Assembly (NCBI GenBank): GCA_020161835.1
Contig: JAIUNL010000015.1
Location: forward strand, 707-64,706
DNA length: 64,000 bases
From: Bacteroidota bacterium
GTDB taxonomy: Bacteria; Bacteroidota; JABWAT01
Direction: 5' to 3'
This document shows, in pieces, positions 25,703 through 60,078 of the stretch. The notes beneath the pieces were generated by a model. The model saw only the letters and a list, made by a program, of their open reading frames with translations, did no database searches and was not told where the DNA came from. The position numbers were made by a program, and so were the translations under genes. Within the stretch, counting starts at the first letter, position 1. Each line of letters opens with the position of its first letter.

Positions 25703-25794
25703 ATGCTTCGAAATGGGTGGCGTCAATTTTATTGGTGTTTCAGAAAGGACGTAGCCCTGACCTGTTTGTAGATTAAAAGTCAATGAAAATAAAA

Positions 25795-25853
25795 AAAGCT
25801 CCGTAGGAGCGATCTGTTAGAAATTGAATAATGGGTCGCTCCTACGGAGCTTT
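25795..25853. repeat. 18-bp-stem perfect hairpin (AAAGCTCCGTAGGAGCGA / TCGCTCCTACGGAGCTTT). Part of a MITE-like composite repeat.
   Basis: Degenerate homologs of this hairpin and of the adjacent TTCTACAAACGGGTCGCACCTCTGGTGC segment recur in the 28300-28900 tandem repeat. Confidence 0.5.
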
Positions 25854-25945
25854 CCTAATTTGTGGGGTTTGCTTCTACAAACGGGTCGCACCTCTGGTGC
25901 TTCAAAATGAAATTGGCAATTTTTATAAAACTGGGTTTACTAGTG

Positions 25946-26015
25946 CGTAATTCGCAATTCGCAATTCGCAATTCGCAATTCGCAATTCGCAATTCGCAAT
26001 TCGTAATTCGTAATT
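25946..26015. repeat. Heptanucleotide tandem repeat (AATTCGC) of about 10 units, the last units being AATTCGT.
   Basis: Directly visible: taattcgcaattcgcaattcgc...attcgtaattcgtaatttcc, between the convergent genes pyrD and mlaE. Confidence 0.85.
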
Positions 26016-26018
26016 TCC

Positions 26019-26798
26019 TCAATCAAAAAACAAACTCCAAAGAACATAATCTGCAACCAGAATCGAAGCCGACGACAGCACAAAAGCCTTAATAGTTGAC
26101 TTCCCGACGCCTTCTGCACCACCTTCAGTCTGAAACCCAATGTGGCAGCCAAGTAAAGCGGTAAGTCCACCAAAAACAACAGACTTTGAAATTCCGTAAA
26201 TCAGATCATTCAGGATGAAGTATTTCTGAACCGAATAAAAAAAAGTGGGTGCAGAAACGCCCAAAAAAGAATTGGCTACAACAAAAGAGCCGAAAAGTGC
26301 AACCGCATTTGCAAAAATGACGAGAACCGGAAGCATGGTAATAGCTGCCAGAAAACGGGGCATTGCAAGAAAACGGGTGGGTGGAATTGACATCACCTGA
26401 AGCGCATCGAGCTGTTCGGTTACCTTCATAGTTCCGATTTCTGCAGCAATTGAAGCGCCCACCCGACCGGCAATAATAATTCCGGTCAAAACCGGACCCA
26501 ATTCCAGAAAAATTGCCCGGCTAACCGCCGAACCAACAAAAGAGTTAGGCATCATACCTTTAAACTGATAAGCCGCCTGAAGAGCAGCAACCGCTCCGGT
26601 AAAAACGCCAATGACCAGTACAAGCGGAAGTGACCCCACCCCGATCAGGTGCATTTGCTGAAGCACTAAAGCACGGTCACGCCATAACCGGTTTAGCGAG
26701 AGCAGAATATCCCTCAATAAAGTGGCAACAGCCCCAAAATCCCTGAAGAATATTTGGGTTTTCCGACCGATCAGATTGAATAAAAACTTGGTTAACAT
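26019..26798 (-). CDS. mlaE: MlaE/YrbE-family ABC transporter permease.
   Basis: 259-aa polytopic membrane protein with the conserved MlaE C-terminal region (GGAEGVG). Confidence 0.7.
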   Translation of the reverse strand: MLTKFLFNLIGRKTQIFFRDFGAVATLLRDILLSLNRLWRDRALVLQQMHLIGVGSLPLVLVIGVFTGAVAALQAAYQFKGMMPNSFVGSAVSRAIFLELGPVLTGIIIAGRVGASIAAEIGTMKVTEQLDALQVMSIPPTRFLAMPRFLAAITMLPVLVIFANAVALFGSFVVANSFLGVSAPTFFYSVQKYFILNDLIYGISKSVVFGGLTALLGCHIGFQTEGGAEGVGKSTIKAFVLSSASILVADYVLWSLFFD

Positions 26799-43215: not shown

Positions 43216-45390
43216 ATGAGAACGTGGTTATTGTCTGTTTTATTGGTACTGGGATTTGCAGGCTCTGCAAGTGCTCAGGTATATGATTTGTGGCTTTTCG
43301 ACGGAGTCGGACCTGCCCCAACTGCTGTAACACCCAAAGGTGTAGGTAATCTTAGCTCTGCAACCGTTGTGGCTACAGCAACTACCACAAATGCTGGTTA
43401 TATCTACCGCCAGACCGACTGGTCAAACAAATGGACCAACGCTACCAATGTTGTAAATACTGCTATGACCTTTTCAAGTGCTGGTGGTCCTGGATCACCT
43501 GACGGACGTTTCAGTGTAACCCTTGATAAATATTATACATTCAACGTTCCAACAGTACCTGTATTTGGTGACAATGTTACCGAATTTGCCATTCTTGAAA
43601 CTGCCGGTTCACCAACCGCAATCTCAAGTTTGACCCGGAATTTTCCAACACCAACTCCATCAAACATGGTTGAAATCACAGTTACCCTTGCTGCTTCACC
43701 TGGTGTAGACGAGCTGGTTTATGTCATCTATTCAACTGATGCCTGGAGTACCTATACCGCAGCAGCTGTTTTTATGGAAGGTAATGTTGGATTTGCCAAT
43801 ATTCCCGCCCAAACCCTGGGAACAACGGTGTCTTATTATGCCATGACTTCACCGGTTGCTTCTGCTTCATGGGGAACATCAAAAGATGTTCTAACTTTGA
43901 GACTTAACAACAATGGTGGACTAAATTACAGCTACACTGTCAGTGCCGGACCCGATGAAACCAACCCAACAGACGTTTCTGATCTTAGTGCAACTGCTGA
44001 TGAAAACCTGAATAAAATTGTACTCACCTGGTCACCGGTGACAGAAGCCAATTTTGAAACCTACGAAATTTACTATAACACCACGGGTGAAGTTTCTACC
44101 AGCGATACCAAAATCGACAAAACAACACTTCCTTCACTCGGTTCAATTGCTACCAGTACAGCTACCATTTCAGGTCTTAATTGGGGCACCACTTACTTTT
44201 TCACAATCAGAGGAGTTGACGTTTCCGCCAATGCAGGTACACTTTCAAATGAAGTCAGTGCCTCAACAATTGCTGAACCAATCGTTCTCATGGATGGAAC
44301 ATTTGATGGAGAAGGTAAATGGGGATCACCTGTTGCAACTGCTGATCAGGTTGCCGGATGGTTTGATGTGAATGCTAAGAAACTTTACATCACCTATGAT
44401 GCAACCTATGTTTACTTTGCTGTAGAAGTTACCTATTCCTCATGGCAAAAATGGGTATTCCTCATTAACACAATCCCGGGTGCCGGTGGTTCTGTTACTG
44501 CTGCAAATGATGCCACAACTTATGGTCATGCCCAATTACCTGATTTTGCAATTGTACAAAATGGTGTAAATGCAACCTTGAAAGTATGGAACGGAAGTGC
44601 CTGGGAAGATCATGCAACTTCATTAACTGCAGGTGTATGGACTGGTTTTTCAACAAGCTATGTTGAAGTCAGAATCCTGAAATCCATGCTGAATGATGTT
44701 TCACCTGGTGATGTTCAGTTTTATATCACAGGCAATAATGCTGGTGAACACAGTTCATTTGATTCAGTTCCTGATGATTTGGTTATGACTAGCTGGAATA
44801 ATCCGCTAACCTTATCAAACTATGCAACTTCAGTTACCCTTCCAGTTGAACTTGCTTCCTTCACCGGAAAAATGGTTAACGGAAATGTTCTGCTTAGCTG
44901 GTCAACAGCTTCTGAAAAGAATAACTACGGATTTGAAGTTGAGAAAAATCTTGGAAACGGTTGGAATAAAGTTGGATTTGTTGCCGGAAACGGAACTACA
45001 ACTGAAGCCAAATCCTATTCCTTCTCAGATTCAAAAGTCAGCGATAAAGCTACCTATCGCCTGAAACAATTGGATCTTGACGGAACCACTTCCTATTCTG
45101 CTTCAATCGAAGTATTCTCTGGAGTTGCTGAATCTTTCGAATTAAAAGGAAACTATCCGAATCCGTTCAACCCATCAACGGTGATCGAGTTTTCGCTTCC
45201 TTCTGCAGGAACAGTTGATTTTGCAGTATTTAACACTTTAGGTCAACTTGTTTCTTCATCAAAAGTGAACGGAATCAGTGGTCTTAATCAGCTTTCATTT
45301 AAAGCTGACGGACTTTCATCAGGTGTTTATTTCTACCAATTAACCTTTAACGGAAAATCGGTAACCAAAACAATGAGCTTCCTGAAATAA
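43216..45390 (+). CDS. Large secreted protein with a T9SS C-terminal sorting domain and a fibronectin-III-like module.
   Basis: Signal peptide. C-terminus NYPNPFNPSTVIEFSLP...GVYFYQL is a Por/T9SS CTD. Tandem paralog of 45554..47809. Confidence 0.7.
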   Translation: MRTWLLSVLLVLGFAGSASAQVYDLWLFDGVGPAPTAVTPKGVGNLSSATVVATATTTNAGYIYRQTDWSNKWTNATNVVNTAMTFSSAGGPGSPDGRFSVTLDKYYTFNVPTVPVFGDNVTEFAILETAGSPTAISSLTRNFPTPTPSNMVEITVTLAASPGVDELVYVIYSTDAWSTYTAAAVFMEGNVGFANIPAQTLGTTVSYYAMTSPVASASWGTSKDVLTLRLNNNGGLNYSYTVSAGPDETNPTDVSDLSATADENLNKIVLTWSPVTEANFETYEIYYNTTGEVSTSDTKIDKTTLPSLGSIATSTATISGLNWGTTYFFTIRGVDVSANAGTLSNEVSASTIAEPIVLMDGTFDGEGKWGSPVATADQVAGWFDVNAKKLYITYDATYVYFAVEVTYSSWQKWVFLINTIPGAGGSVTAANDATTYGHAQLPDFAIVQNGVNATLKVWNGSAWEDHATSLTAGVWTGFSTSYVEVRILKSMLNDVSPGDVQFYITGNNAGEHSSFDSVPDDLVMTSWNNPLTLSNYATSVTLPVELASFTGKMVNGNVLLSWSTASEKNNYGFEVEKNLGNGWNKVGFVAGNGTTTEAKSYSFSDSKVSDKATYRLKQLDLDGTTSYSASIEVFSGVAESFELKGNYPNPFNPSTVIEFSLPSAGTVDFAVFNTLGQLVSSSKVNGISGLNQLSFKADGLSSGVYFYQLTFNGKSVTKTMSFLK

Positions 45391-45553: not shown

Positions 45554-47809
45554 ATGAAAACACGGTTACTACCCCTATTCTTTCTGCTGGGTTTTACCCT
45601 TACCGCAGAAGCACAAGTTTATGATTTATGGTTGTTTGATGGCGTGGGTCCCGCACCAACCGCTGTTACCTCCAAAGGTTTTGCAGGATTAAGCTCAGCG
45701 ACTGTTCAGGCCACGGCTACAACAACAAACGCAGGTTACATTTATCGTCAAACAAACTGGGCAAATAAATGGACAAATGCAGTAAATACGGTCAATACTG
45801 CGATGACATTTTCGAGCGCAGGTGGAAGCGGATCTCCCGATGGTCGGTTTAGTGTTACGCTTGGGAAATATTATACGTTTAATGTTCCAACTACTCCTTT
45901 GGTTGGAAACACATCCCAACTTTTTTCAATTTTGGAAACTTCTTCAGCACCGGTTACCATCAGCAGTGTTACCCGGGATATCATTTCCCCTGCTCCAACC
46001 GATGCACCCTTAATTACAGTAAACCTGAGCGCTGCACCCGGTGCAGATCAGTTTGTTTATCTCAGATACACAACAGATGCCTGGAGTACAAGTACCCCTC
46101 TTTTAGTCCCCATCACCGGAACTTCGGGTTCTGTTACGATTCCGGCTCAATCTGAGGGAACTGTCGTTTCGTATTATGCACTGACTACACCTGTTACTTC
46201 TTCTTCATGGGGCGCAAACATTGATGTACTGACCCTTAAAGCAAATAACAATGCCGGAACCAATTACAACTACACATCGGCCACAGCAGCAGATACGACA
46301 CCACCATCAACCATTTCAGATCTTACTGCCACTGCAGATGCTGATCTGGCCAGAATCACCCTTTCCTGGACACCGGCTACGGAAGACAACTTTGATACTT
46401 ATGAAATTTTCTACAATCTGACCGGTTCAGTTTCCGATGTCGATTCCAAATTTGATAAAAACCAATTTATTGCACTGGGTACCCGTACATCCAATTCAGT
46501 AACACTGACCGGACTTTCATGGGGGAGCACCTATTATTTTAAAATTCGTGGCGTTGATCAGGCAACCAACAAAGCAACATTGTCGAACGAAGTGTCTGCA
46601 TCTACTATAGCCGAACCTCTTATCATTATGGATGGTCTTTTTGATGGTGAATCAAAATGGGGAGCGCCAGTTGCAATTGCTGACGGTGTTGCAGGTTGGT
46701 TTGACGTCAATGCAAAAAAAATGTACGTCACCCATGACGCCAATTATGTATATTTGGGTGCTGAAGTTGATTATGCATCCTGGCAAAAATGGGTATTTTT
46801 AATCAACACAATTTCAGGAGCAGGAGGTTCGGTTTCTGCGGCCTCAGATGTTGCCACTTATGCGCATTCTCAGCTTCCAGATTTTGCAATCGTTCAGAAC
46901 GGATTAAACGCCAACCTGAAAACTTGGGATGGAAGTGCCTGGGTTGATCATGCTACTTTACTTACAGAAGATGTTTGGACAAAATTCACCACGACATTTG
47001 TTGAAGTCAGAATCCTTCAATCCATGATCGGAAATGTAACCTCAGGTGATGTTCAGTTTTATATTTCCGGAAATAATGCAGGGGAGCATAGTTCATTTGA
47101 TTCCGTTCCTGATGATTCTTCTATGGCCGCTTGGAATGATCCGCTTTCGCTTTCAAAATATGCGACTTCCGTTACGCTTCCAGTTGAGCTTGCATCTTTC
47201 ACCGGAAAATGGATAAATGGAAATGTGTTGCTGAATTGGGCAACAGCGACTGAGACGAATAACTTCGGATTTGAAATACAAAAAAGAATCGCGGAGCCTG
47301 AGGCTCTCGAAGGCTCTGCTTCGGGCATCTCAAACCAGGACCCTTCGAGAGCCTCAGGGTCCAGGTCAGAATGGGAGACAATTGGTTTTGTTGCCGGTAA
47401 AGGCACCACCACAGAAGCACAGTCTTATAGTTTTTCGTCACCTGTCACCAGTCCCCTGTCACCGGCGCTTTACCGTCTTAAACAGATTGATCTGGATGGA
47501 ACTACGACCTTTAGTCAATCGATAGAAGTTTCTGGTGGAAATAAACCTGCTGTTTTCTCTACCCGTAATTATCCGAATCCATTTAATCCATCGACAACCA
47601 TTGAATTCACCCTTACCGAATCTCAACCGGTTCACTTCGAGTTGTTCAACATCATTGGGCAACGAATCATGAGTAAAAGTCTTGGCAGGATGGATGCAGG
47701 ACTTCACTCCTGGTCAATGGATGGATCTTTTCTTGCGAGTGGATTTTATACCTACCGGTTAACGGCAGGAAATCAATCAACAACCCGGATGATTCAGTTA
47801 ATCAGGTAA
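45554..47809 (+). CDS. T9SS-sorted secreted protein, about 70% identical to 43216..45390. It carries an in-frame palindromic insertion.
   Basis: Signal peptide and T9SS CTD. Extra segment IAEPEALEGSASGISNQDPSRASGSRSEW is encoded by the inverted repeat at 47293-47360. Confidence 0.7.
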   Translation: MKTRLLPLFFLLGFTLTAEAQVYDLWLFDGVGPAPTAVTSKGFAGLSSATVQATATTTNAGYIYRQTNWANKWTNAVNTVNTAMTFSSAGGSGSPDGRFSVTLGKYYTFNVPTTPLVGNTSQLFSILETSSAPVTISSVTRDIISPAPTDAPLITVNLSAAPGADQFVYLRYTTDAWSTSTPLLVPITGTSGSVTIPAQSEGTVVSYYALTTPVTSSSWGANIDVLTLKANNNAGTNYNYTSATAADTTPPSTISDLTATADADLARITLSWTPATEDNFDTYEIFYNLTGSVSDVDSKFDKNQFIALGTRTSNSVTLTGLSWGSTYYFKIRGVDQATNKATLSNEVSASTIAEPLIIMDGLFDGESKWGAPVAIADGVAGWFDVNAKKMYVTHDANYVYLGAEVDYASWQKWVFLINTISGAGGSVSAASDVATYAHSQLPDFAIVQNGLNANLKTWDGSAWVDHATLLTEDVWTKFTTTFVEVRILQSMIGNVTSGDVQFYISGNNAGEHSSFDSVPDDSSMAAWNDPLSLSKYATSVTLPVELASFTGKWINGNVLLNWATATETNNFGFEIQKRIAEPEALEGSASGISNQDPSRASGSRSEWETIGFVAGKGTTTEAQSYSFSSPVTSPLSPALYRLKQIDLDGTTTFSQSIEVSGGNKPAVFSTRNYPNPFNPSTTIEFTLTESQPVHFELFNIIGQRIMSKSLGRMDAGLHSWSMDGSFLASGFYTYRLTAGNQSTTRMIQLIR

Positions 47810-47833
47810 GTTTTCCGTTTTTGTATTTTTTGA

Positions 47834-47867
47834 AGCCAGTCCGGCCTTTGCCGGACTGGCTTTTTTT
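47834..47867 (+). terminator. Rho-independent terminator.
   Basis: GCCAGTCCGGCCTTTGCCGGACTGGC followed by T8. Confidence 0.6.
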
Positions 47868-48153
47868 TGTTTTACCCGTGCTACCAATCCCGTGGTTCAT
47901 CCCCGTTTCGTCCGAATGAAATTTATCGTTTTTTTAAAAATTATGTGTTCGGACGATGATAATTATCAACACTCATTATTCCACCGTGTTCGCACACGGG
48001 GCTATTCATATGAAACCCATCGCCTGACCGGTTTTAATTGCACTAACAATTCACCACTTATCATCCCGAAAGTGTTCGGGATCTTCACTTCGTTCGATTG
48101 ACCATTATTTTTGTCATTTATCTCCGACAACTTTTCCCTCCCTGTCAGCTTAA

Positions 48154-49603: not shown

Positions 49604-51655
49604 TTATTTCAGGAAGGTGAGTTTTTTGGTCAGTCTCTGGCCTTCAAACTCAGTTACTATCATGTAAACACCCGATGGTATGCCATCTGTAGTGATGTTT
49701 TGGACATAATCTCTGCCCTTTTTCATGAATTCGTTTTTGAGAACTTTCACTTCCTGACCAATCACGTTGAACAACCGGATCGAAACATATCCATCCTTCG
49801 GAATATCAAAAAGCATTTTTGCTTCCGGATTAAAAGGATTTGGATAAATTGAACTGATCTGGAATTCAACAGGAGGTTCATAATCAGGTTGTTGAGGTTT
49901 TCCATCTGTTGGAATAACGGATAGAACCTTATGTTCGGTACGATTTCCATCAATACTAACATCAACCAGTTTGTAATAGTACGTCACGGAATTAATGACC
50001 TGAGGATCAGTCAGCGAATATTTGCCTCCCTGATCTCCTTTGCCACGAAGTTCACTTTTTGAGGTATAACTGGCAACCAGTCTGAAATCAGATTTTTCTC
50101 TTGCTGACCGATAAATTTCAAATCCAGCATGATTGAGTTCTGAAGCCGTTTCCCAGTTTAACGTAACTTTATTGTTTCCAGGGGTTGCAGACCAGGAAAG
50201 TAACTCAATTGGGAGTGGTGTATCGCCGTCACCAATAGTAAATTCAGAAAATGACGTAACGGTAAAGGAAACAGTTCTCGGATCGGTTCCTGTGTTAAAT
50301 ACTGCACCAGGAACAATAACCCAAGTCAGTCCGCCATCATTGCTTTTTAGGACATATAAATCACCCAGGTTGATTCCATTATCATTTGAGGCAGGCCAGG
50401 AAAAGTCAACATCAACCGGATTTCCACCAGGCTGATTGGTTGGTGTAATCGTCCATGATTGATTGATACTTGTTCCAATTCCAGCACCAGGACCAGACTC
50501 ACGGAGGATGGTTGTATTTCCAAGATTGAAAGCAGCAGGGTCAACAGAAATTCCCAAACCGCCAAAATTCAAAACAGGAGCTGCATTGATATCAGCCAGG
50601 CCCTGAACCGTTCCGACGATATATGTAGCTGGCGTTTCACCTGAAATTGAACCGGTTGTACCCAGATCAATTCCATTAGAACCTGTGTTTACGGTAGCAC
50701 CGATTGTCAGAGTTCCTGTAACCGTTAGGTCTCCAGTCAGAGTAGTAGGGGCTGAATAGGTCACATTGGTTACCGAACCTTGTGTTGGTGGACCAACCGT
50801 ATAGGAATAATTCGAGCCACTATTAGTATTCGATTTAATAGTAATCATATCTGCATCACTCCATGGAGTTGATACAGTTGTGGTGAGTGCGTAATAAGAA
50901 ACAACCGTTCCTTCAACCTGTGCCGGAATTATTGCAGTTGCTGAGGCACCAGTAACCGAGGCAAGAACGGCATCAGAAGAGAACCATCCATCAGCGGTAT
51001 ACCTGATATACACTTTTTCTTCTGCAGATTTGCTTCCGCTCAGCGTTACCGTAATGGAAACTGCATCGTCAGGAGTTGGTGTTTCGGCAGGAACAGAAAC
51101 TGAAGAAATCGTAACCGGATCACCAGTAGTTTCCATAAAAATGGCTTCGGTATTGGTATAGCCAATATCTTTCCAGTTCATAGTGTACCATTTATCATCT
51201 ACAACTGTAATGGAGTTATTTGGATCTGCACCAAAAGTGTAGGTCTGTATTGTATTCATTGAAACATTGGTTCCTGTCCATTTGTTATTCCATGGGCTAC
51301 CAGTAGGACCCGATGTAAACAGGAATTCATAAGTACCGCCTGTTACGTCACCACCAGATGCAGCAACCTTTATGGTGGTTGAATAACGTCGCGTTCCAGT
51401 AGTTTTCAGCGTGACTTGTCCAGAAACCTGAGTTAAACTTCCGAGTGCTGAGCCAGTAGCAGGCGGATTTGTATAGCTATTCCATGCGCCAGGTAAATTC
51501 AATCCTTCCGGCTCCCAAATTTGCGGAGGAGCAAGAACACTTTGTGCCGTTGGTGTTTCAATTTGAGCAAATACCAGAATTGGGGTAAGTGCAAATAGAA
51601 TCGTTAACATTTTTTTCATAGATACCTCCCGATTATAAAAAGAATAAAGTAACAA
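49604..51655 (-). CDS. T9SS-sorted secreted protein (683 aa).
   Basis: Signal peptide. C-terminal module of about 200 aa (FN3-like plus T9SS CTD, ...SIYPNPFNP...) about 75% identical to the C-terminus of 51963..57278. Confidence 0.65.
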   Translation of the reverse strand: MLLYSFYNREVSMKKMLTILFALTPILVFAQIETPTAQSVLAPPQIWEPEGLNLPGAWNSYTNPPATGSALGSLTQVSGQVTLKTTGTRRYSTTIKVAASGGDVTGGTYEFLFTSGPTGSPWNNKWTGTNVSMNTIQTYTFGADPNNSITVVDDKWYTMNWKDIGYTNTEAIFMETTGDPVTISSVSVPAETPTPDDAVSITVTLSGSKSAEEKVYIRYTADGWFSSDAVLASVTGASATAIIPAQVEGTVVSYYALTTTVSTPWSDADMITIKSNTNSGSNYSYTVGPPTQGSVTNVTYSAPTTLTGDLTVTGTLTIGATVNTGSNGIDLGTTGSISGETPATYIVGTVQGLADINAAPVLNFGGLGISVDPAAFNLGNTTILRESGPGAGIGTSINQSWTITPTNQPGGNPVDVDFSWPASNDNGINLGDLYVLKSNDGGLTWVIVPGAVFNTGTDPRTVSFTVTSFSEFTIGDGDTPLPIELLSWSATPGNNKVTLNWETASELNHAGFEIYRSAREKSDFRLVASYTSKSELRGKGDQGGKYSLTDPQVINSVTYYYKLVDVSIDGNRTEHKVLSVIPTDGKPQQPDYEPPVEFQISSIYPNPFNPEAKMLFDIPKDGYVSIRLFNVIGQEVKVLKNEFMKKGRDYVQNITTDGIPSGVYMIVTEFEGQRLTKKLTFLK

Positions 51656-51962: not shown

Positions 51963-54900
51963 TTATTTAAGGAAGGTAAGACTCTTGGTTAATCTCTGAC
52001 CGCCAAACTCAACTGAAACCATATAAACGCCTGACGGAAGTCCATTTGTAGTAATGTTTACAACCTTTTCACGGCCTTTTTTCATGATTTCATTTCGGAT
52101 TACCTGAACTTCCTGTCCGATCACGTTATACAATCTAATCACGACCAAACCATCGTTTGGTAAGTCAAATACCAGATTCGTTGTTGGGTTGAACGGATTC
52201 GGGTAGATGGAACTGATTTTAAAGGTAATCGGAACAACGAACCCTGGTTGAACAGGTTTTCCATCTGTTGGAATAACGGTAAGAATTTTGTGTTCTTTAC
52301 GCTTTCCGTCAACACTTACATCTACCAGTTTATAATGGTAGGTTTCCATGTTAAGTACCGATTGATCAACAATGGAATACTTCCCGCCTGTATTTCCCTT
52401 AGGTTTAAGTTCATTTGATGAAATATAACTTTTAAATAACCGGAAGTTTTCCTTTGTGGTTGTTGACCTGTAAATCTCAAAACCATCATGATTCAGCTCG
52501 GATGCCGTTTCCCAATTCAAAGTTACTTTCTTGTTTCCTGGTGTCGCAGTCCAGGATAGCAATTTAATTGGCAGTGGTGAATCCCCATCACTAACCGTCC
52601 AGTCAGAAAATGACGTCGTTGTGAAAGTAATGGATCTTGGATTTGTTCCTGTTGAAAATGGACCTGCATGCATTTGCCAGGTTACGCCATTGTCATCTGA
52701 TTTCCAGACAAACAGATTTGAAGGGTTTCTGCCATTATCATCAGCAGATGGCCAGGTAATGGTTACATCTACTGCACCGGATGGCTGACTGGTTGGTGTA
52801 ATGGTCCAGCGACGGTTGATTCCTACACCCAAGGCAGCTACCGAAGGACCTGTCCGGCGGATGACTACTGTTGAACCCAGATTATTCCCATTCGGATTGA
52901 TAGTAAGCCCAAGACCAGCTATACCAACAGGTGAACCACCACTCAATGTTGGGTTTGCATTGACCGTACCCAAAATGTAGTTGGTTGTCGTTTCACCTGA
53001 AATGGAACCGGTAGTTCCCAGATTAATGGAATTAGAACCCGTACTCAGATTGGCACCCGAAATCGTTAGGGTTCCAGAAACCGTGAGGTTACCGGTGAGG
53101 GTTGTATTGCCAGAAATTTGAGCATCAACATGTGAACCGGAAGTTGGGTTTGAAGCTACAACCGTAACAGTTAAACCAAGAGTCAAATCATCAATTCTCC
53201 AGTTTGCGGTATTCGCACTTGGACTACCGGCACCACTATGACCGTAAATCCGGTATGTAATTGCAGATCCGTTCGGACTCTTTGATGAAAATCCTGAATT
53301 TGATTTAAGTTCCCAGGTACCAGTTGTCAATAAAATACCGCTAGCAAGTGTTGTTGCATAACCATCAAGTGATGACCGGAGAGAGTATGCAGCTGGTCCA
53401 GTACCAGTTGAACGGCTTCCAAAAGAAAAAGAACTGAGGGTTACATTATATCCTGCATCTGGAGTTAACGAAAACTCAAAATAGGCACTTCCTGAGGCAC
53501 CGGTAGTAATGCCACCAGTTCTTGCAGCAGCACCGGCATTGTTGGTTCCTGATGCACCTGCATAACCAGTAGAAGGTGAAGTTGTGGTCAACAGTGTGGT
53601 GGTCCCGTTATTGTTCCCCTGACTTACGGCTGAAACGGTCAGGTTGCTGACCGGTGTGGATGAAGGACTTGCTGTTGCAAAATTCCAGGTTACTGTACTG
53701 GCGGAAACTGCTTCAATGATGGCCGTAAACACCACATTATTCGTTGATGTTAAATCGGATCCAGAATAATCATCAATCTGATCCTGAGAAACAGAAACAG
53801 TAACATTTGCATTTTCATCATAATCTGTAGCCGTACCTGTGATTGCAATCGTAACCTGAGTTGCATTAACCTGAGTAACGGTTCCCTTTGAAAGTCCGGC
53901 AGGAAGGTTATTCAGAGTCCAGGCAGATTGTGAAAAAGTTGAGGAAATGGTTCCACCAGCAAGGGTTACGGTCAGAATTTCACCTGATTCAGATCCTTCA
54001 GTAATACTTCCGTCACCTGCAACTGTAATACTTTCAGCATCATCATTTGCAGTGAAGGTAAATCCGGAATTGGCAGATGCCGATCCTGAAGATGTAACGA
54101 CCAATTCAGCATGATCAATGGTCACAATCGGACTGAAATTGGTATCATAATCAGTTGTCCGGTTTCCGGAAAGTGTAATGGTAGCCTGAGTATCACTCAC
54201 ACGATTCAGTGCCCCTTTTGTAACACCTGCAGGCAGATTGGTCACTGCCCAGTTTCCGGTTGTGAGTGAAGGTTCAAACGTATCGTTGGTCAGATTAACA
54301 GTAATGACAGAAGCATCTTCAGATGATTCTGTTGCAGAACCGGATAAAGTGATTGAAGCATTATCATCATCAGTGATCGTAAGCGTATGAGTCGTTTGGG
54401 CACCCAAAGTTGCGGAGGATCCACCTGTAACGTTCTGAAGCGTGAAACCAAGGGTTTCATTGCCTTCCATAACTGCATCATCGGTTACGGTTAAGGTAAC
54501 GGTTTCTGATGTCGAAGATCCAGCCGGGAAAGTAACCGTTTGAGTTGTGTAAGTATTGATATCTGCAGCAGAACCGGTGCCACTGGTAAGAGCAACATCG
54601 ACGGTTGTAGCGACAGATCCACTCGGATTGGCAATAGAAACAGTCAGATCAATAGTACCACCGGATTCAGCAACAGAAGATGTTGCAGTGCTGAATTGGA
54701 CGGTTGTTGGATTGGCGATAGGTCCCTGAAGACTTGATTCTACAGCAGTTCCTGTTGTCACACCTGTTGTAGCAACCGGTGTAACTTCGAAGGAAATATG
54801 TTTACCATTATCACCGGAAACCAGTGTGTAAGTCAATGAAGTTGCACCGCCAATTGCGGCTTTGTTTGTTCCTGAACCGTCATCACTACGCATCCAACGG

Positions 54901-57278
54901 AAGGTTGAAGTTCCCTGAACATCAGATTCAGAATCAGAATAAGTGTAACTTCCGGTTAAAAGTTGGCCAACGTTTAGTGTTCCTGAGAAAGAAACCGATG
55001 AAGCTGTTGGTGCGGTGTTTGCAGGAGCAACTGAAGTAGATCCTGTAACAATAATATCATCCCCGGTTCCATCACCAATCCCACCAGAACCACCCGTTGC
55101 TTCAGCATACATGTAGAACCGGTATGTTACTGGTACGGAGGAGTTATTTTGTGTAAAGGTAAAAGTAAATGATTGTGTTGACGTGTTATCAACAATAGAA
55201 AATACCTGATCGAGATCTGATGCATATCCATCTACAGAACTGCGAAGAGCAACGGCACTGGGACCGGTTGCAGACCGCTGAAGATTGATAAAAATTGAAC
55301 TTACGCTGAACTGGAATCCTGTTTGAGGAGTGATGGTAAATTCCATATACTTATTTTCACTAACTGCATTGGCTATGGAGGTCAATGCCCAGTTGGTTGC
55401 GTTTAAACGTTGGGCATTCGTGGTGGCAGTTAATCCCGCTCCCCGGCTCATCGTTGAAGCAGTCAAGTTAGCGTCATTGCCACTGGAGCTAACAGTTGTT
55501 TCATCTCCGGCTAAGCTGACAAATTCAAAGGTAAGAAATACTGGTTCAACGGTGGCGGTCAGAGTCACGCCTGTGTTGGCTGTCAGATTTGCTCCGGTAT
55601 ACTCATCAACTTCCGCTTCATTTACTGAAACAGTCACATTGGTGATGTTTGCGTCGTAATCGATTGTAGCATTACCGCTGAGGACAATTGTTACTGAGGT
55701 GGCGGATGTGCGGGTAACAGTTCCTTTGGTCACACCGGTTGGCAGGTTTGAAACAGTAAAATTGGCTGCATTGATGGTGCTGATAAAGGTTCCGCCCACC
55801 AGAGTAACAGTAATGATTTCACCATTTTCTGCGCCTTCGGTGATTGATCCGTCATCAGCAATGGTTATGCTTTCGGCATCATTGGTCGCTGTAAATGTAA
55901 AACCGCTGTTATCCGATACACTTCCGGATGCCAGTGTGGTCAATTCCTCATGGGATACTGAAACAGTAAGGTTGGTGATATCAGAATCATAATCTGTGAT
56001 CCGGTTTCCTGAAAAGGCAATGGTAGCCTGGGTATCAGAATCACGGGTGATTGATTCCACAGTAACACCGGCTGGAAGGTTGGTGATTGTCCAGTTAGTA
56101 GGAGTTAATGAACCGACAAAGGTATCATTGGCAAGGGTTACTGTTACAGTTCCGGCATCTTCATTGCTTTCACCAACGGAACCACTGATGGAAATGGAAG
56201 CTGAAGGCGGAGTATCATTATCTGTAATGACAATATTCTGGGAAAGGGTGGAACCCAAAACAAGTCCGGAAGTTGGACTTGATATGGTGACGGTTGCTGT
56301 TTCTGATCCTTCAATATCGCCATCATCTACCACAGTGAAAGTGGTTGTTCCGGTTGTTGCCCCACTTAAAATTGTAATGGATGTGGCCCCAAGAGTATAG
56401 TCACCAGCGGTGATTCCAGTTCCTGTAACGGCAACATCCACAGTTTGGTCACCAGAAACGGCAGAAGAGGATGTTGCAGTAAGTGTGATTGAGGCTGGTG
56501 TAGCTTCTGATCCAGAATTTGAAGTCACAGATAGATTTACTATTGGGGTTGAAAGTGGTGTTACTGAAGCCCAAGAAGTACCAACTAATATTCCATCCAC
56601 AAGCACCGTCGGAGCATTTGAAGTATTTCCCTGACGAAGTGCAACAGTTCCAGCACCAGTTGCAGAAATATCAGTCTCAGAGCTTGTCCCAGTTAAAGTT
56701 GCACTAGGTTCTGAACCGCCTAAAGTTGGGTCAATAAATAGGGCGGCTTGGTCGTTTGTTGCTCCAGATACAAAGGTGTACTTCAAAACGATATAATGAA
56801 CTGTATTATATGTTAAGACAGTGGAAGAGTAAGTAACGTTTGTTCCTGCCTTACTAAAGCCTATAAAATAGCCACCAGTTGTAGATTTTGCATAAATCCT
56901 ACCTTTAAAATCCGAACCGATTGTTGCAGGTGCAATATGAAAGAAGTAATCCCCAGTCGCCTGAGCCGCCGTAACATTGACCATTAAACCAACATAAATA
57001 GATCCACTTGATATGGCTGTAAAGCCTCTGTTTATATCTTCACCTGATGTTGTAAGGCTTGCAGCAAACCCAATTGCAGAATTTGAAGATCCTGAATAAC
57101 TTAGCCCGGTGCCTGTGGATGTTACAGAAATAACATTGGTTCCACCCCCACTGTGAGCAGTCCAGCCATTTGAAGTTAAGGCGGTTCCCCCAGTGTAATT
57201 AAAATTTTCGGTTAAACTCTGTCCCCAAACACTCATTCCAACAAGCAAACTTGCGATTAACAGTAACCCTTTTTTCAT
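51963..57278 (-). CDS. Giant T9SS-sorted surface protein (1771 aa) with repeated Calx-beta-like / Ig-like modules.
   Basis: Signal peptide. Many repeats of the pattern G...T.T.T...TV.DD...EG.E. T9SS CTD at the C-terminus. Confidence 0.65.
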   Translation of the reverse strand: MKKGLLLIASLLVGMSVWGQSLTENFNYTGGTALTSNGWTAHSGGGTNVISVTSTGTGLSYSGSSNSAIGFAASLTTSGEDINRGFTAISSGSIYVGLMVNVTAAQATGDYFFHIAPATIGSDFKGRIYAKSTTGGYFIGFSKAGTNVTYSSTVLTYNTVHYIVLKYTFVSGATNDQAALFIDPTLGGSEPSATLTGTSSETDISATGAGTVALRQGNTSNAPTVLVDGILVGTSWASVTPLSTPIVNLSVTSNSGSEATPASITLTATSSSAVSGDQTVDVAVTGTGITAGDYTLGATSITILSGATTGTTTFTVVDDGDIEGSETATVTISSPTSGLVLGSTLSQNIVITDNDTPPSASISISGSVGESNEDAGTVTVTLANDTFVGSLTPTNWTITNLPAGVTVESITRDSDTQATIAFSGNRITDYDSDITNLTVSVSHEELTTLASGSVSDNSGFTFTATNDAESITIADDGSITEGAENGEIITVTLVGGTFISTINAANFTVSNLPTGVTKGTVTRTSATSVTIVLSGNATIDYDANITNVTVSVNEAEVDEYTGANLTANTGVTLTATVEPVFLTFEFVSLAGDETTVSSSGNDANLTASTMSRGAGLTATTNAQRLNATNWALTSIANAVSENKYMEFTITPQTGFQFSVSSIFINLQRSATGPSAVALRSSVDGYASDLDQVFSIVDNTSTQSFTFTFTQNNSSVPVTYRFYMYAEATGGSGGIGDGTGDDIIVTGSTSVAPANTAPTASSVSFSGTLNVGQLLTGSYTYSDSESDVQGTSTFRWMRSDDGSGTNKAAIGGATSLTYTLVSGDNGKHISFEVTPVATTGVTTGTAVESSLQGPIANPTTVQFSTATSSVAESGGTIDLTVSIANPSGSVATTVDVALTSGTGSAADINTYTTQTVTFPAGSSTSETVTLTVTDDAVMEGNETLGFTLQNVTGGSSATLGAQTTHTLTITDDDNASITLSGSATESSEDASVITVNLTNDTFEPSLTTGNWAVTNLPAGVTKGALNRVSDTQATITLSGNRTTDYDTNFSPIVTIDHAELVVTSSGSASANSGFTFTANDDAESITVAGDGSITEGSESGEILTVTLAGGTISSTFSQSAWTLNNLPAGLSKGTVTQVNATQVTIAITGTATDYDENANVTVSVSQDQIDDYSGSDLTSTNNVVFTAIIEAVSASTVTWNFATASPSSTPVSNLTVSAVSQGNNNGTTTLLTTTSPSTGYAGASGTNNAGAAARTGGITTGASGSAYFEFSLTPDAGYNVTLSSFSFGSRSTGTGPAAYSLRSSLDGYATTLASGILLTTGTWELKSNSGFSSKSPNGSAITYRIYGHSGAGSPSANTANWRIDDLTLGLTVTVVASNPTSGSHVDAQISGNTTLTGNLTVSGTLTISGANLSTGSNSINLGTTGSISGETTTNYILGTVNANPTLSGGSPVGIAGLGLTINPNGNNLGSTVVIRRTGPSVAALGVGINRRWTITPTSQPSGAVDVTITWPSADDNGRNPSNLFVWKSDDNGVTWQMHAGPFSTGTNPRSITFTTTSFSDWTVSDGDSPLPIKLLSWTATPGNKKVTLNWETASELNHDGFEIYRSTTTKENFRLFKSYISSNELKPKGNTGGKYSIVDQSVLNMETYHYKLVDVSVDGKRKEHKILTVIPTDGKPVQPGFVVPITFKISSIYPNPFNPTTNLVFDLPNDGLVVIRLYNVIGQEVQVIRNEIMKKGREKVVNITTNGLPSGVYMVSVEFGGQRLTKSLTFLK

Positions 57279-57663
57279 AAGCTTATTCCTGATTTATAAA
57301 TTTTCGAACTAAAAAGAACTTCATCCGGTGGGTTCGGTACCGGATTTTACAAAAAATCAACATGCAAAAGTACACGTTTTTTTACCCCAAGCAACCCAAA
57401 TTCCACTTTCACCACATAATTTAAAGAAAGTCTACCTAAAACCTTTCATTATAGTGGTTTAGGCATAAAGGCAATGGAAACAAGGAGTTAGTAGTTTAGT
57501 AGGTAGTAGGTGGTTGCTGACAGGCACTTCGACTTGGTTACTGAGCAAAGTCGAAGTACCGCTCAGTGACCGTCCACCCCGTCCGGCAGTTGCCGGACAC
57601 CCTTCGATAAAAATTTGAACTTCGTTCAAATTCACTCAGGGTGACACTCATTTTGTTTTAATA

Positions 57664-60078
57664 CTATTGTCTACTACCTACGACCTTGTGATTCCAAAAA
57701 TTCAGATAAATCTGTTCCCAGCTTTGTGATTCTGCATAGGTTCTGGCAGCTTTTGACATTTCTTTTCTTTTAACGTCATCCGTCAACAGGTCAATAAGGG
57801 CCGTTGCCAGTTCATCGGTGTTTTTGGCGTGAGTCACGATGCCTGTAATTCCGTCCTGAACAATATCTTTCGGACCCCCAATATTGCTCACGATGGCCGG
57901 AACACCGCTTGCAAGCGATTCCAGAACCACATTTCCGAAGGTATCCGTCGTGCTGGGAAAGAGAAAAACATCTGCTGAGGCAAAACTTTTATAGAGTGAT
58001 TCTCCACCCATGAATCCGGTGAAAACTGTGTTTGTATCTTTCAGTTCAGATTTTAATTCTTTCAGATAAGGTCCGTCACCCACAATCACCAACGATGCAG
58101 ACGGAACGGCTTTATGGACTTTCTTCCAGACTTCCGGCAGCAGATCAAGATCTTTTTCCTTCGCAACCCGGCCAACATAAATAACTTTTTTTCCGCCATT
58201 CAGGCCAAAACTGTCAAAGGCGTGTTTCACTCTTTTGGTTGGTGAGAAGGATTCCAGATCAGTTCCGTGCGGGAACAGGAACATTTTAGTTGGATCAATT
58301 CCCTTCCTGACCAGCTGATTCCGGTAATGGGAACTGGGCACGTAAACCAGATCGGCCTGATCATAAAACCAGGTCATGTATTTCCAGGCCACTTCTTCCA
58401 TGGCTTTGTCATCGGTGTAATACCGCACATATCCGGGAAAATCGGTGTGATAAATCATGGTGATTTTCAGATTGAGCAGTTTTGCGGCCCATAATGCAGC
58501 AAGTCCAACAGAACCCGGCGTTGAAATAATAACTTCGGTAAACCCTTCCTTCTCGAAATATTGCACCATTTCAAGAAACGGCGGAAAGGCAATCGTAAAC
58601 GAATCATTCTGCGGAAGTTTAAAGTCACCGACGGGAGTAAAGTTTTTCAGCGGGAGTCCGTGATCCTGAATTTCTTCGTTGGTACAGGTGATGATGACAA
58701 GCTGATGTTTGTGCTTCAACCCAGCTTCCACCATTTTCCTGATGACGACTGCAACCCCATTCACATCAGTAAACGTATCAGTCACCCAGGCCTTTTTCGG
58801 ATTGGAGTAAAAATCCAGATCTTTCCTGAGATATTTTTTGCTGACCGTCCGGAAGAATTCACGGCTCTTGTTATAATTGAGGAAGGAAATGAGGTAAGGA
58901 ACCATCCCGATTCCGACAGGAACGATGGAAGAAAGACTTTGAATGGATCCGAAAATGGATCCTTCTGAAATTTTATTGATGGCTTTCCGGGTAAATCTGA
59001 ACAGTAATTCATTCGTTACCCGGTTGGCGACTTCGAAGGTTTTGGCATTCAGTTGCCGGTTTTTTTGAGGATCGAGGATGTTTTCATCCTTCCCCCACTC
59101 TTCATTCAGATGGTTAAGATTTGACATCAGGTATTGTTTGAAATCCTGCTGTGATTTTTTCCCACGGAGCCGGTTGATGACAAAGGTCATTTTATCCCGG
59201 AACGATATGGAAGCTTCTTCACTTCCAACAAAACCGCCGACTACATTCATGGCATTACCAAAGCCTCCGTTTGATCCCTTTCCAACAAAATACTTATTTC
59301 TGTAGTAGGAAAAAATCGTATAGTAGAGTCCATGGGCAAAACTGACCGAAGTTTCCGGAATACAGGTGGCATCCGAGTGTTTTTCTGCAATTCCCAGTAA
59401 AAAATCAGGAACGGTTTCAGCATCTTTTACAAACGTATAACCCCGGGCAATAAATAATCCGCTGTGATCATCAGATCCGCCTGTGTACCCTTTCTGCCAG
59501 CCAGCTGGTGCGATCGGGAGTCCGGTATGATCGGCAAGGATACGGTCGTAGACTTCGGGTGTGAGTGCCCGGGTGACCTCCCGAATCAGTTTATTTTCGA
59601 TGGCGTTACTTTGTCCGTTAGCCACTTCAAGCACATCAAAAAGCAGCAGACATTTTTCAAACGTTTCAATTGTCAGTTTCCCGGCTACATTATATAAAGG
59701 ATGCGCACAGGAATGTACGATTTTTTCCTGACGGAGATAACCAAGCAAATCGTAGACATTTTCACGGAGGTGTTCAATGTCAGCAAATTGTTTTTCGGTG
59801 ATGCCGTAACAGGGAACGTGGATGGCACAACCGTCTTCAGGAAACCAGGTGGTCGCTTCCACACTGATAAAGGCATCGGGATGATGGGCAATTTCCAGCG
59901 CTCCGTTGATGGTATCATGATCGGTAATCGTTACAAAATCCATTCCCCGGCGTTTGGTTGATTCATAAAGAAAGGCGGGCTGGGTGTAGGATTCAGGTGC
60001 ACCGATCTGGCGGAGCAGCCATTCTGAAGGTTTGTCACTGTATTTGGAGTGGATGTGCAGATCTGCTTTTTTCAGCAT
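57664..60078 (-). CDS. Fusion of an N-terminal PHP (histidinol-phosphatase-like) metal-dependent phosphoesterase domain and a C-terminal family-4 (GT4/group 1) glycosyltransferase.
   Basis: N-terminus DLHIHSKYSD...ITDHDT is the PHP motif. C-terminus ...FPSTTDTFGNVVLESLASGVPAIVSN is the GT4 E-x7-E region. 804 aa. Confidence 0.6.
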   Translation of the reverse strand: MLKKADLHIHSKYSDKPSEWLLRQIGAPESYTQPAFLYESTKRRGMDFVTITDHDTINGALEIAHHPDAFISVEATTWFPEDGCAIHVPCYGITEKQFADIEHLRENVYDLLGYLRQEKIVHSCAHPLYNVAGKLTIETFEKCLLLFDVLEVANGQSNAIENKLIREVTRALTPEVYDRILADHTGLPIAPAGWQKGYTGGSDDHSGLFIARGYTFVKDAETVPDFLLGIAEKHSDATCIPETSVSFAHGLYYTIFSYYRNKYFVGKGSNGGFGNAMNVVGGFVGSEEASISFRDKMTFVINRLRGKKSQQDFKQYLMSNLNHLNEEWGKDENILDPQKNRQLNAKTFEVANRVTNELLFRFTRKAINKISEGSIFGSIQSLSSIVPVGIGMVPYLISFLNYNKSREFFRTVSKKYLRKDLDFYSNPKKAWVTDTFTDVNGVAVVIRKMVEAGLKHKHQLVIITCTNEEIQDHGLPLKNFTPVGDFKLPQNDSFTIAFPPFLEMVQYFEKEGFTEVIISTPGSVGLAALWAAKLLNLKITMIYHTDFPGYVRYYTDDKAMEEVAWKYMTWFYDQADLVYVPSSHYRNQLVRKGIDPTKMFLFPHGTDLESFSPTKRVKHAFDSFGLNGGKKVIYVGRVAKEKDLDLLPEVWKKVHKAVPSASLVIVGDGPYLKELKSELKDTNTVFTGFMGGESLYKSFASADVFLFPSTTDTFGNVVLESLASGVPAIVSNIGGPKDIVQDGITGIVTHAKNTDELATALIDLLTDDVKRKEMSKAARTYAESQSWEQIYLNFWNHKVVGSRQ

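Follow-up and report, generated by a model that had tools for sequence, protein, structure and literature searches.

A 72-nucleotide palindromic cassette at a variable loop of a type IX secretion cargo gene, probably a translated passenger repeat of the REP/RPE kind

We analyzed a stretch of 64,000 nucleotides from a Bacteroidota bacterium (GenBank assembly GCA_020161835.1, contig JAIUNL010000015.1, positions 707 to 64,706 of the forward strand), hereafter called the window, and in particular a palindromic segment, here called the cassette, that lies in frame inside a gene for a cargo protein of the type IX secretion system (T9SS). The cassette resembles repetitive extragenic palindromes (REPs) and Rickettsia palindromic elements (RPEs), and near-identical copies occupy the same loop in two divergent T9SS proteins of other genomes. 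The host gene, its insert-bearing domain, the cassette, and the corresponding empty site are as follows.

45554..47809, forward strand: host gene, encoding a 751-aa T9SS cargo protein with fn3, an unassigned β-sandwich, and Por_Secre_tail
47171..47548, forward strand: FnIII/Ig-like β-sandwich domain hosting the insert (about aa 540-665), in the loop between strands GFEIQK and WETIGFV
47291..47362, forward strand: palindromic cassette of 72 nt (24 codons), translated as AEPEALEGSASGISNQDPSRASGS; a clean 72-nt gap stands opposite it in the paralog
44947..44961, forward strand: empty-site equivalent in the tandem paralog 43216..45390, with the loop NLGNG

In a protein search, the host protein was identical to P0001, which is encoded on a 135-kb 'Bacteroidetes bacterium' contig of a metagenome-assembled genome (MAG). 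A domain search placed Por_Secre_tail at aa 673-745, in agreement with the original prediction that the palindrome sits in a gene for a T9SS surface protein. Comparison with four syntenic orthologs gave a ratio of nonsynonymous to synonymous divergence (dN/dS) of 0.09-0.15, which indicated that the host gene is functional and under purifying selection and that the insert is translated with it. Residues 530-751 were then modelled with AlphaFold, at a mean predicted local distance difference test score (pLDDT) of 83.8. The insert was modelled as coil (pLDDT 57-75), and the β-strands on either side were long and confident (pLDDT 90-97), which bore out the suggestion that the inserted peptide is a surface loop; comparison of the predicted structure returned FnIII pairs as the fold matches of the insert-hosting domain. 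In the model, the insert thus forms a disordered loop that joins two β-strands of an FnIII-like domain, and this domain precedes the T9SS tail. The 24-codon peptide is hydrophilic and rich in Ser, Ala, Glu, Gly, and Pro, with a hydrophobic fraction of 0.25 compared with 0.41 for the entire host protein, and four of the six frames through the cassette are open. Neither a terminator nor a promoter was found at the element; the host gene has its own terminator at 47832-47863.

When the host gene was aligned with its tandem paralog, a single clean gap of 72 nt, or 24 codons, appeared opposite the cassette, and the peptide at the site read EIQKRIAEPEALEGSASGISNQDPSRASGSRSEWETIGFVAG in the host protein versus EVEKNLGNGWNKVGFVAG in the paralog. 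The extra in-frame DNA claimed on the basis of this paralog was therefore confirmed. The inverted-repeat arms GAGCCTGAGGCTCTCGAAGG (47294-47313) and CCTTCGAGAGCCTCAGGGTC (47342-47361) were complementary at 19 of 20 positions with 28 nt between them, exactly as first described, and could be extended to 24 nt (47293-47316 and 47339-47362; 92% complementary, spacing 22 nt). As to the 68-bp extent first assigned, 47293-47360, the palindrome stood, while the inserted block measured 72 nt, from 47291 to 47362. GC content was 0.64 in the element compared with about 0.37-0.53 in the adjacent 70-nt windows and about 42% in the window as a whole. The predicted hairpin reached -47.3 kcal/mol as RNA (z = -4.05) and -25.5 kcal/mol as DNA (z = -4.6), and none of 200 shuffles folded as well as DNA. 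At up to three mismatches, the arm sequence had no match in the 64-kb window beyond itself and its partner (chance expectation 0.00), but related sequences, as had been anticipated of a mobile repeat, were found in other genomes and metagenomes. A scan of 46800-47900 against Rfam at a permissive E-value returned only generic microRNA-precursor hairpins, at no more than 29 bits against thresholds of 40-100. The element recurs in L180 and L206, two public assemblies of independent origin, which excludes an assembly artefact.

Inside the cassette, each arm belongs to a stem-loop of its own, and the parts are as follows.

47291..47319, forward strand: unit 1, GCGGAG-CCT-GA-G-GCTCT-C-GA-AGG-CTCTGC, 29 nt
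47320..47333, unstranded: linker between the units, TTCGGGCATCTCAA, which holds the sole hypervariable block (47323-47326)
47334..47366, reverse strand: unit 2, ACCTGGAC-CCT-GA-G-GCTCT-C-GA-AGG-GTCCTGGT, 33 nt, with the same core as unit 1
47293..47362, unstranded: long hairpin or cruciform in which unit 1 pairs with unit 2, with two mismatches at unit positions 3 and 21

In unit 1, an outer stem of six pairs (one of them G.T) is followed by three core pairs, a candidate tandem G.A/A.G, and a 5-nt loop closed by a G-C pair. The outer stem of unit 2 forms seven of eight pairs (repeat pair 47334-47344 / 47356-47366) and is unlike that of unit 1. Each unit was predicted to fold independently as DNA. 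Within the 23-nt unit, the two arm differences occupy positions 3 and 21, which pair with one another, GAGCCT..AGGCTC in one unit versus GACCCT..AGGGTC in the other; the differences are compensatory within the units and leave a double mismatch in the long hairpin. The cassette is a doublet of two inverted stem-loop units, and its arms are not transposon termini. The hypervariable block of the linker reads GGGC in the window, TTAT in L180, and AAAT in L206. A third, degenerate unit in the spacer was considered and dropped, its CG being unconserved in L180 and L206.

The two further copies of the cassette lie in T9SS proteins that are 49-54% identical to the host protein in the C-terminal region. 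In L180, found by the metagenome scan, a gene fragment reads IQRSAEPEALEGSASYISNHDPSRASGSSSDWETIGFVAG, with the cassette at the same loop; over the C-terminal 142 residues, its identity to the host protein is only about 49%. A protein search with this fragment did not recover the full-length protein. The second, encoded by L206, is P0141, a T9SS protein of 987 aa with Laminin_G_3 in its N-terminal region; an exhaustive HMMER search with the 31-residue insert detected it, and it has the insert at the same loop. The other HMMER match, P0140, was rejected as a repetitive protein with a low-complexity 'EPAALTASSSG' match. The cassette block is 92-93% identical in L180 and L206, whereas the flanks diverge. 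Compared with L180, unit 1 differed at 0 of 29 positions, the core of unit 2 at 0 of 23, and the linker at 4 of 14; the following 89 coding bases held 16 differences. Compared with L206, the cassette differed at 6 of 72 positions: one change turns the G.T stem pair into G-C, four fall in the apical tetranucleotide block, and one lies in the unit 2 loop. Third-codon positions differed from those of L206 at 3 of 24 (12%) in the cassette versus 121 of 183 (66%) outside it (Fisher p = 5e-7), and at 36 of 60 within 30 codons on either side. These comparisons show that the divergence of the cassette is anomalously low relative to the surrounding gene. The similarity among the three copies ends at the feet of the unit stems. 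No target-site duplication was found at any of them, and the flanks share no direct repeat. Removal of the 72 nt would restore a normal loop length in each of the three proteins. The GC contents of the three cassette-bearing genomes are 41.9, 46.0, and 47.8%. At a distance of 4.5 kb from its cassette, the L180 contig has a further unit, single and of the same loop type.

Among closer relatives, the site has changed repeatedly. The position is occupied by different inserts in the orthologs at 90, 85, and 80% identity, and no insert occurs in the 66% ortholog (L004), in the tandem paralog clade, or in more distant homologs. The insert of L001 is a single reverse unit in which another small hairpin takes the place of the loop; that of L002 is a unit of the type found at 57523-57571 of the window, preceded by CAGTAGA-like heptamers; and that of L003 is only heptamer-like AG-rich sequence. 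All four ortholog insert states keep the frame, each differing from the empty state by a multiple of three. Orthologs lacking the insert therefore do exist, as the original prediction would have it; it had named a segment common to all orthologs as the sign of ancestral sequence, and we found instead that close orthologs differ and distant ones are empty. Among some 48 homologous domains, most have a loop of 4-7 residues, and about one third have 9-30 repeat-like residues there. The site is a recurrent hot spot for repeat insertion.

Other repeats were also observed at this loop. In a homologous T9SS domain (L205, 204-893; P0110), about ten GTCAGAG heptamers lie in a row inside the same loop and encode the peptide SEVRGQISEVRGQMSEVR; slippage at such a 7-nt coding repeat could turn the gene on and off. 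The inserts in L001, L002, L003, and L203 likewise have heptamer-like sequence at their flanks. In L204 (14-892; P0073), the same loop of a homologous domain holds an unrelated strong palindrome, AGTGAACCGTTCACT-GGG-AGTGAACGGTTCACT, of -19 kcal/mol as DNA.

The nearest relative of the host gene, L001 (10001-12223), differs from it in a confined patch.

47248..47366, forward strand: divergent patch versus L001, about 120 nt, consisting of the cassette and an upstream substitution cluster

From 46604 to the gene end the two genes are 97-100% identical except in this patch, and in the 5' half only 73-87% identical. The patch reads ATETNNFGFEIQKRI followed by the cassette, and its upstream cluster encodes ATETNNF in the host protein versus ASEKNNY in all other orthologs. 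Because a patch of about 120 nt differs amid 97-100% identity while the 5' half stands at 73-87%, the host gene is a recombination mosaic, and its cassette was gained or altered very recently relative to the surroundings.

The core of both units, the 17-mer CCTGAGGCTCTCGAAGG (CCT-GA-G-GCTCT-C-GA-AGG), is widespread. A scan of species-representative genomes, confined to exact 17-mers, detected it at at least 120 loci, and the matches listed came from Chloroflexota, Acidobacteriota, Bacteroidota, Armatimonadota, Deltaproteobacteria, Treponema, and others. Viral contigs scanned with the 17-mer yielded 11 loci, 8 of them distinct, where the core is a single copy bracketed by its own short inverted repeats. 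Across 122 distinct units, the first flanking pair was formed in 117, by at least four pair types (CG, UA, GC, and UG), and the covariation score was 0.315 compared with 0.151 after shuffling (0 of 500 shuffles reached 0.315) and at most 0.152 with slid partners, so that the stem of the units is backed by covariation across the family. Among non-identical hairpins of the same layout at these loci, the two positions below the loop were most often filled by G-A/G-A (51 cases, compared with 32 for the next class), and the adjoining stem covaried (CCT/AGG, GCT/AGC, ATT/AAT, CCC/GGG, and GTT/AAC). These patterns give a family signature of variable stem-GAG-N4-5-TCGA-complementary stem, in which two adjacent G.A mismatches lie below a loop closed by G-C; the mismatches may form tandem sheared G.A pairs.

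Units of this family were rarer in long open reading frames (ORFs) than expected at random, 16-34% being spanned by one compared with 55-82% of random positions. The intergenic units lay between 43 unidirectional, 23 convergent, and 7 divergent gene pairs. Their G.A strand was the transcribed sense strand 29 times versus 14. In these three features the family resembles REP sequences (PMC3733652). The first flanking pair on the G.A strand was UG in 11 cases versus GU in 1. One metagenome sample series held some 45 or more doublets with this core and a 34-nt spacer, lying in either orientation, and doublets can therefore amplify as units. A literature search for the literal strings of the core and its common variants retrieved nothing relevant. 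The hairpin core matches no Rfam family, as tested with the window copy, nor any of the repeat families that could be checked.

Several arrangements of the core were noted in passing. The loci L137-L202, on contigs Ga0116229_*, Ga0209611_*, Ga0116226/8, and Ga0209208, hold a larger, high-copy palindromic element, GTCAT-core-ATGGGC..22 nt..GCCCAT-core'-ATGAC, in about 45 or more copies and both orientations, often flanked by partial units (TCATCCTGAG...). Crude ORF calls across these elements read VILRLSKDG, ILREPQDD, and SFESLRMT, so that spurious ORFs probably arise from them. Tandem arrays of the 17-mer core were noted as well, at the genome loci L018, L132, L116, and L032; the period is about 200 nt in an Armatimonadia MAG, about 83 nt in L132, and 23 nt, head-to-tail, in L116 and L032 (Treponema).

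The cassette was then compared with known repeat systems. It has the build of a REP, in that its units of 29 and 33 nt are imperfect palindromes that fold alone and stand as an inverted pair with a spacer. According to Di Nocera et al. 2013 (PMC3733652), the CGTC-tagged REPs, which include Rickettsia RPE-4 and RPE-6, are reported in Chlorobi, Bacteroidetes, and other phyla, and REP/RPE dimers coding for 20-30 aa within functional genes are documented. As described there, CGTC REPs are, like the window units, short stem-loops, with a stem of 8-9 positions and a loop of 4-5 nt in their case; they share with the window family a predominance of inverted dimers, a mostly intergenic position at gene 3' ends, and the lack of a linked transposase; and, in the manner of the cassette, a minority of them lie in frame within functional genes, to which a dimer contributes 20-30 residues. 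Unlike the CGTC REPs, the window units have no CGTC/TGTC/CCTC tag, no A/T first stem pairs, and no CCA tail. GTCAY preceded the core in only 14 of 120 units, and there it lay within the stem. The window stems start G-C/A-T/G-C and contain two G.A mismatches; their 5-nt loop and their length are compatible with CGTC REPs. No conserved tail was found, the consensus tail of CGTC REPs being CCA. The window peptides EPEALEGS and DPSRASGS match none of the CGTC peptides listed there (VIPAKAGI, DSRLRGND, VMPGLDPGIH, etc.; PMC3733652). Membership of the window copy among the CGTC REPs was rejected, as tag and tail are absent and core and peptides differ.

PARCELs, which are tandem arrays of a 25-residue amphipathic domain (2010, PMC2996958), resemble the cassette in their dyad-symmetric coding DNA, their location in surface or membrane proteins, and a patchy spread that suggests horizontal transfer (PMC2996958). 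The cassette, in contrast, is a single hydrophilic doublet from a mainly noncoding hairpin family. PARCEL membership was rejected, the cassette being a single doublet and no tandem 25-residue amphipathic array. The RPE-1 elements that Ogata et al. are said to have described in 2000 and 2002 reportedly measure about 100-150 nt, are confined to Rickettsia, and share their sites among orthologs by vertical descent. Like them, the cassette is palindromic, in frame in a functional gene, translated, and situated at a fold-compatible site; unlike them, by that description, it is shorter and sits in non-orthologous proteins with very different flank divergence. Small dispersed repeats of cyanobacteria, reportedly treated by Elhai et al. 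in 2008, are said to have cores of 21-27 nt at hairpin tips, variable flanks, and occasional insertions in genes, and no enzyme is known for them; the likeness serves as a lead only. Because the GTAG and CGTC tags and the hallmarks of miniature inverted-repeat transposable elements (MITEs) are absent, the element is filed as working like a REP/RPE but outside those named families.

With a probability of about 0.6, we interpret the segment as a translated passenger cassette of the RPE/REP kind, inserted in frame and subject to spread and turnover at a permissive loop. A widespread, mostly intergenic hairpin family supplies both units, which the cassette combines as an inverted doublet. Because its length is a multiple of three, the frame used is open, and the loop is permissive, the gene remains functional and the element would persist as a passenger, in the manner of the Rickettsia RPEs. 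The segment is not ancestral sequence and behaves like a discrete unit; it would have been gained, replaced, and spread at this loop, and in the window genome the cassette would have arrived or last changed on the patch of about 120 nt within an otherwise near-identical allele. The cassette would be selfish or neutral, and its movement might involve hairpin single-stranded DNA acted on by an unlinked trans-acting enzyme, short-patch recombination between homologous domains, or both.

A number of observations weigh against this interpretation. By our own arithmetic, about 70 chance matches to a 17-mer are expected in 1.2e12 positions, and the breadth of the family therefore rests on the evidence of the flanking stems and not on raw counts. 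The 64-kb window holds one cassette and one related composite, and its source contig does not occur in the metagenome collection that was scanned. Neither a recurrent protein family nor a transposase was found beside units or doublets in 186 loci, where all-against-all clustering of 323 unit-adjacent ORFs produced no clusters beyond generic kinases, regulators, and transporters. Intermediates of excision or insertion were not seen, nor was any single population polymorphic for empty and filled sites. Finally, the three copies share frame, orientation, and position, which could mean a single old insertion kept by selection, and the loop residues that flank them are similar (KRI^RSE, RRS^GLE, and QRS^SSD).

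A more specific form of the passenger interpretation is possible and is put forward tentatively. The cassette might be a site-specific, 'homing-like' coding hairpin element, which would insert precisely and in frame at one loop-coding position of the β-sandwich domain of T9SS cargo, perhaps by way of the adjacent heptamer-like GTCAGAR, and spread between non-orthologous proteins and genomes. It would be built from the cross-phylum stem-GAG-N4-5-TCGA-stem tandem-G.A family, with unlinked machinery.

The alternative with most in its favour, which we nevertheless regard as rather unlikely, is that the cassette was inserted once in the common ancestor of this β-sandwich subfamily, was exapted, and has since been held in sequence by selection, either because the hairpin acts in mRNA or DNA (slowing ribosomes before the sorting tail, affecting mRNA decay, or binding protein) or because the peptide is useful. 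That three divergent proteins have the cassette at an equal position, in the same frame and orientation, and between similar loop residues keeps this selection hypothesis alive. The whole cassette is conserved save for the 4-nt apical block, and the sole stem change restores a Watson-Crick pair; the sense bias of the G.A strand and the tolerance of G.T wobble (UG over GU) across the family would fit a role at the RNA level. However, L001, despite its near identity around the site, has a different, non-derivable element, still others are found in L002 and L003, and the site is empty in L004 and the paralogs, so that the cassette is dispensable and quickly turned over. Moreover, no stem covariation was seen among the three copies, the element is neither terminator nor promoter, and the linker bases outside the stems are conserved too, a pattern more in keeping with recent common ancestry than with structural selection. 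A recent spread is favoured by these conserved non-stem linker bases and by the fast turnover among the closest relatives.

It is improbable that the cassette is a REPIN in the strict sense, that is, a REP doublet moved by a REP-associated tyrosine transposase (RAYT; IS200/IS605 type) encoded elsewhere in the genome. Bertels & Rainey 2011 (PMC3116915) describe REPINs, or GTAG REPs with RAYT transposases. Like REPINs, the cassette consists of two inverted imperfect palindromes with a spacer that form a long hairpin, and it lacks a target duplication; the family is mostly extragenic, and doublets with the same core seem to behave, as REPINs do, as the replicative unit, with dozens of copies amplified in one organism in both orientations. 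The cassette differs from REPINs in that GTAG is found at neither unit (the flank consensus of 120 units is ..(C/G)(A/G/T)(C/T)), in that the copy is intragenic and translated, and in that the core crosses phyla, whereas REPINs are vertically inherited within lineages according to the abstract of bioRxiv 10.1101/2022.05.22.493013. No RAYT was indicated near the units, as no neighbour family recurred in the 186 loci, a comparison that included no Y1_Tnp profile search and covered no complete genome.

A classical Correia/NEMIS MITE, namely a deleted insertion sequence with terminal inverted repeats for a DDE transposase that happened to land in frame, is very improbable. The element is short and has inverted-repeat ends, and the composite at 57499-57681 of the window has real terminal inverted repeats. 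Nevertheless, the cassette is only 72 nt long, its 'terminal repeats' are self-folding units, the core is single in most genomes, and target-site duplications are absent from all three copies. Of the analogy first drawn for this segment, the Rickettsia RPE part is thus supported by the in-frame REP/RPE dimers documented in PMC3733652, whereas the MITE/Correia part fails on the missing duplication and the self-folding units. Scarcely credible is an ancestral loop sequence or a hairpin made locally by chance or by template switching in replication, since, for all the general variability of loop length across the domain family, the core with its family-specific features is common to unrelated genomes, the segment is far richer in GC than the window, it is absent from the 66% ortholog and the paralogs, and near-identical copies sit in diverged genes.

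The case presented here is one 72-nt cassette at one surface-domain loop in three divergent proteins, from genomes of differing GC, with a divergence at synonymous positions about five-fold below that of the surrounding gene. To our knowledge, palindromic repeats inserted in frame have for the most part been regarded as a peculiarity of Rickettsia and of a few genomes rich in REPs. If the insertion is indeed targeted, the cassette offers a tractable case for how hairpin repeats without an enzyme of their own move, and such repeats would supply ready-made flexible loops to secreted proteins. If the homing-like proposal is true, it would add a new way to diversify the loops of surface proteins and an uncatalogued superfamily of bacterial repeats. 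Furthermore, the GAG..TCGA hairpin core probably lies behind many spurious small ORFs in annotations (peptides LRLSKG, PEALEG, and FESLR), and its recognition would be of practical use.

Beyond the host gene, the window holds a second locus of the hairpin family.

57499..57681, reverse strand: composite of about 180 nt with terminal inverted repeats GTAGGTAGTAG/CTACTACCTAC, upstream of a 1771-aa T9SS gene

The composite folds as DNA with z = -5.4 and comprises unit A (57598-57645), the core of which is split by a long AT-rich inner hairpin that replaces the loop, and unit B (57523-57571), in the loop of which a second inverted unit is nested. It also has a small GC hairpin, TCCGGCAACTGCCGGA. 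Elsewhere in the window, a convergent intergenic region contains an inverted repeat at 25787-25861 with 33-nt arms that include GCTCCGTAGGAGCGA (GTAG among its letters), and after it, at 25949-26015, a heptanucleotide tandem array, (AATTCGC) x 9.6, which abuts the 3' end of a reverse-strand gene (26019..26798). The host gene itself belongs to a 15-kb stretch with four T9SS cargo genes whose C-terminal regions are related (43216-45390, 45554-47809, 49604-51655, and 51963-57278). The tandem pair 43216-45390 / 45554-47809 is 60% identical, and the four-gene arrangement is kept in the relatives L001, L002, and L004.

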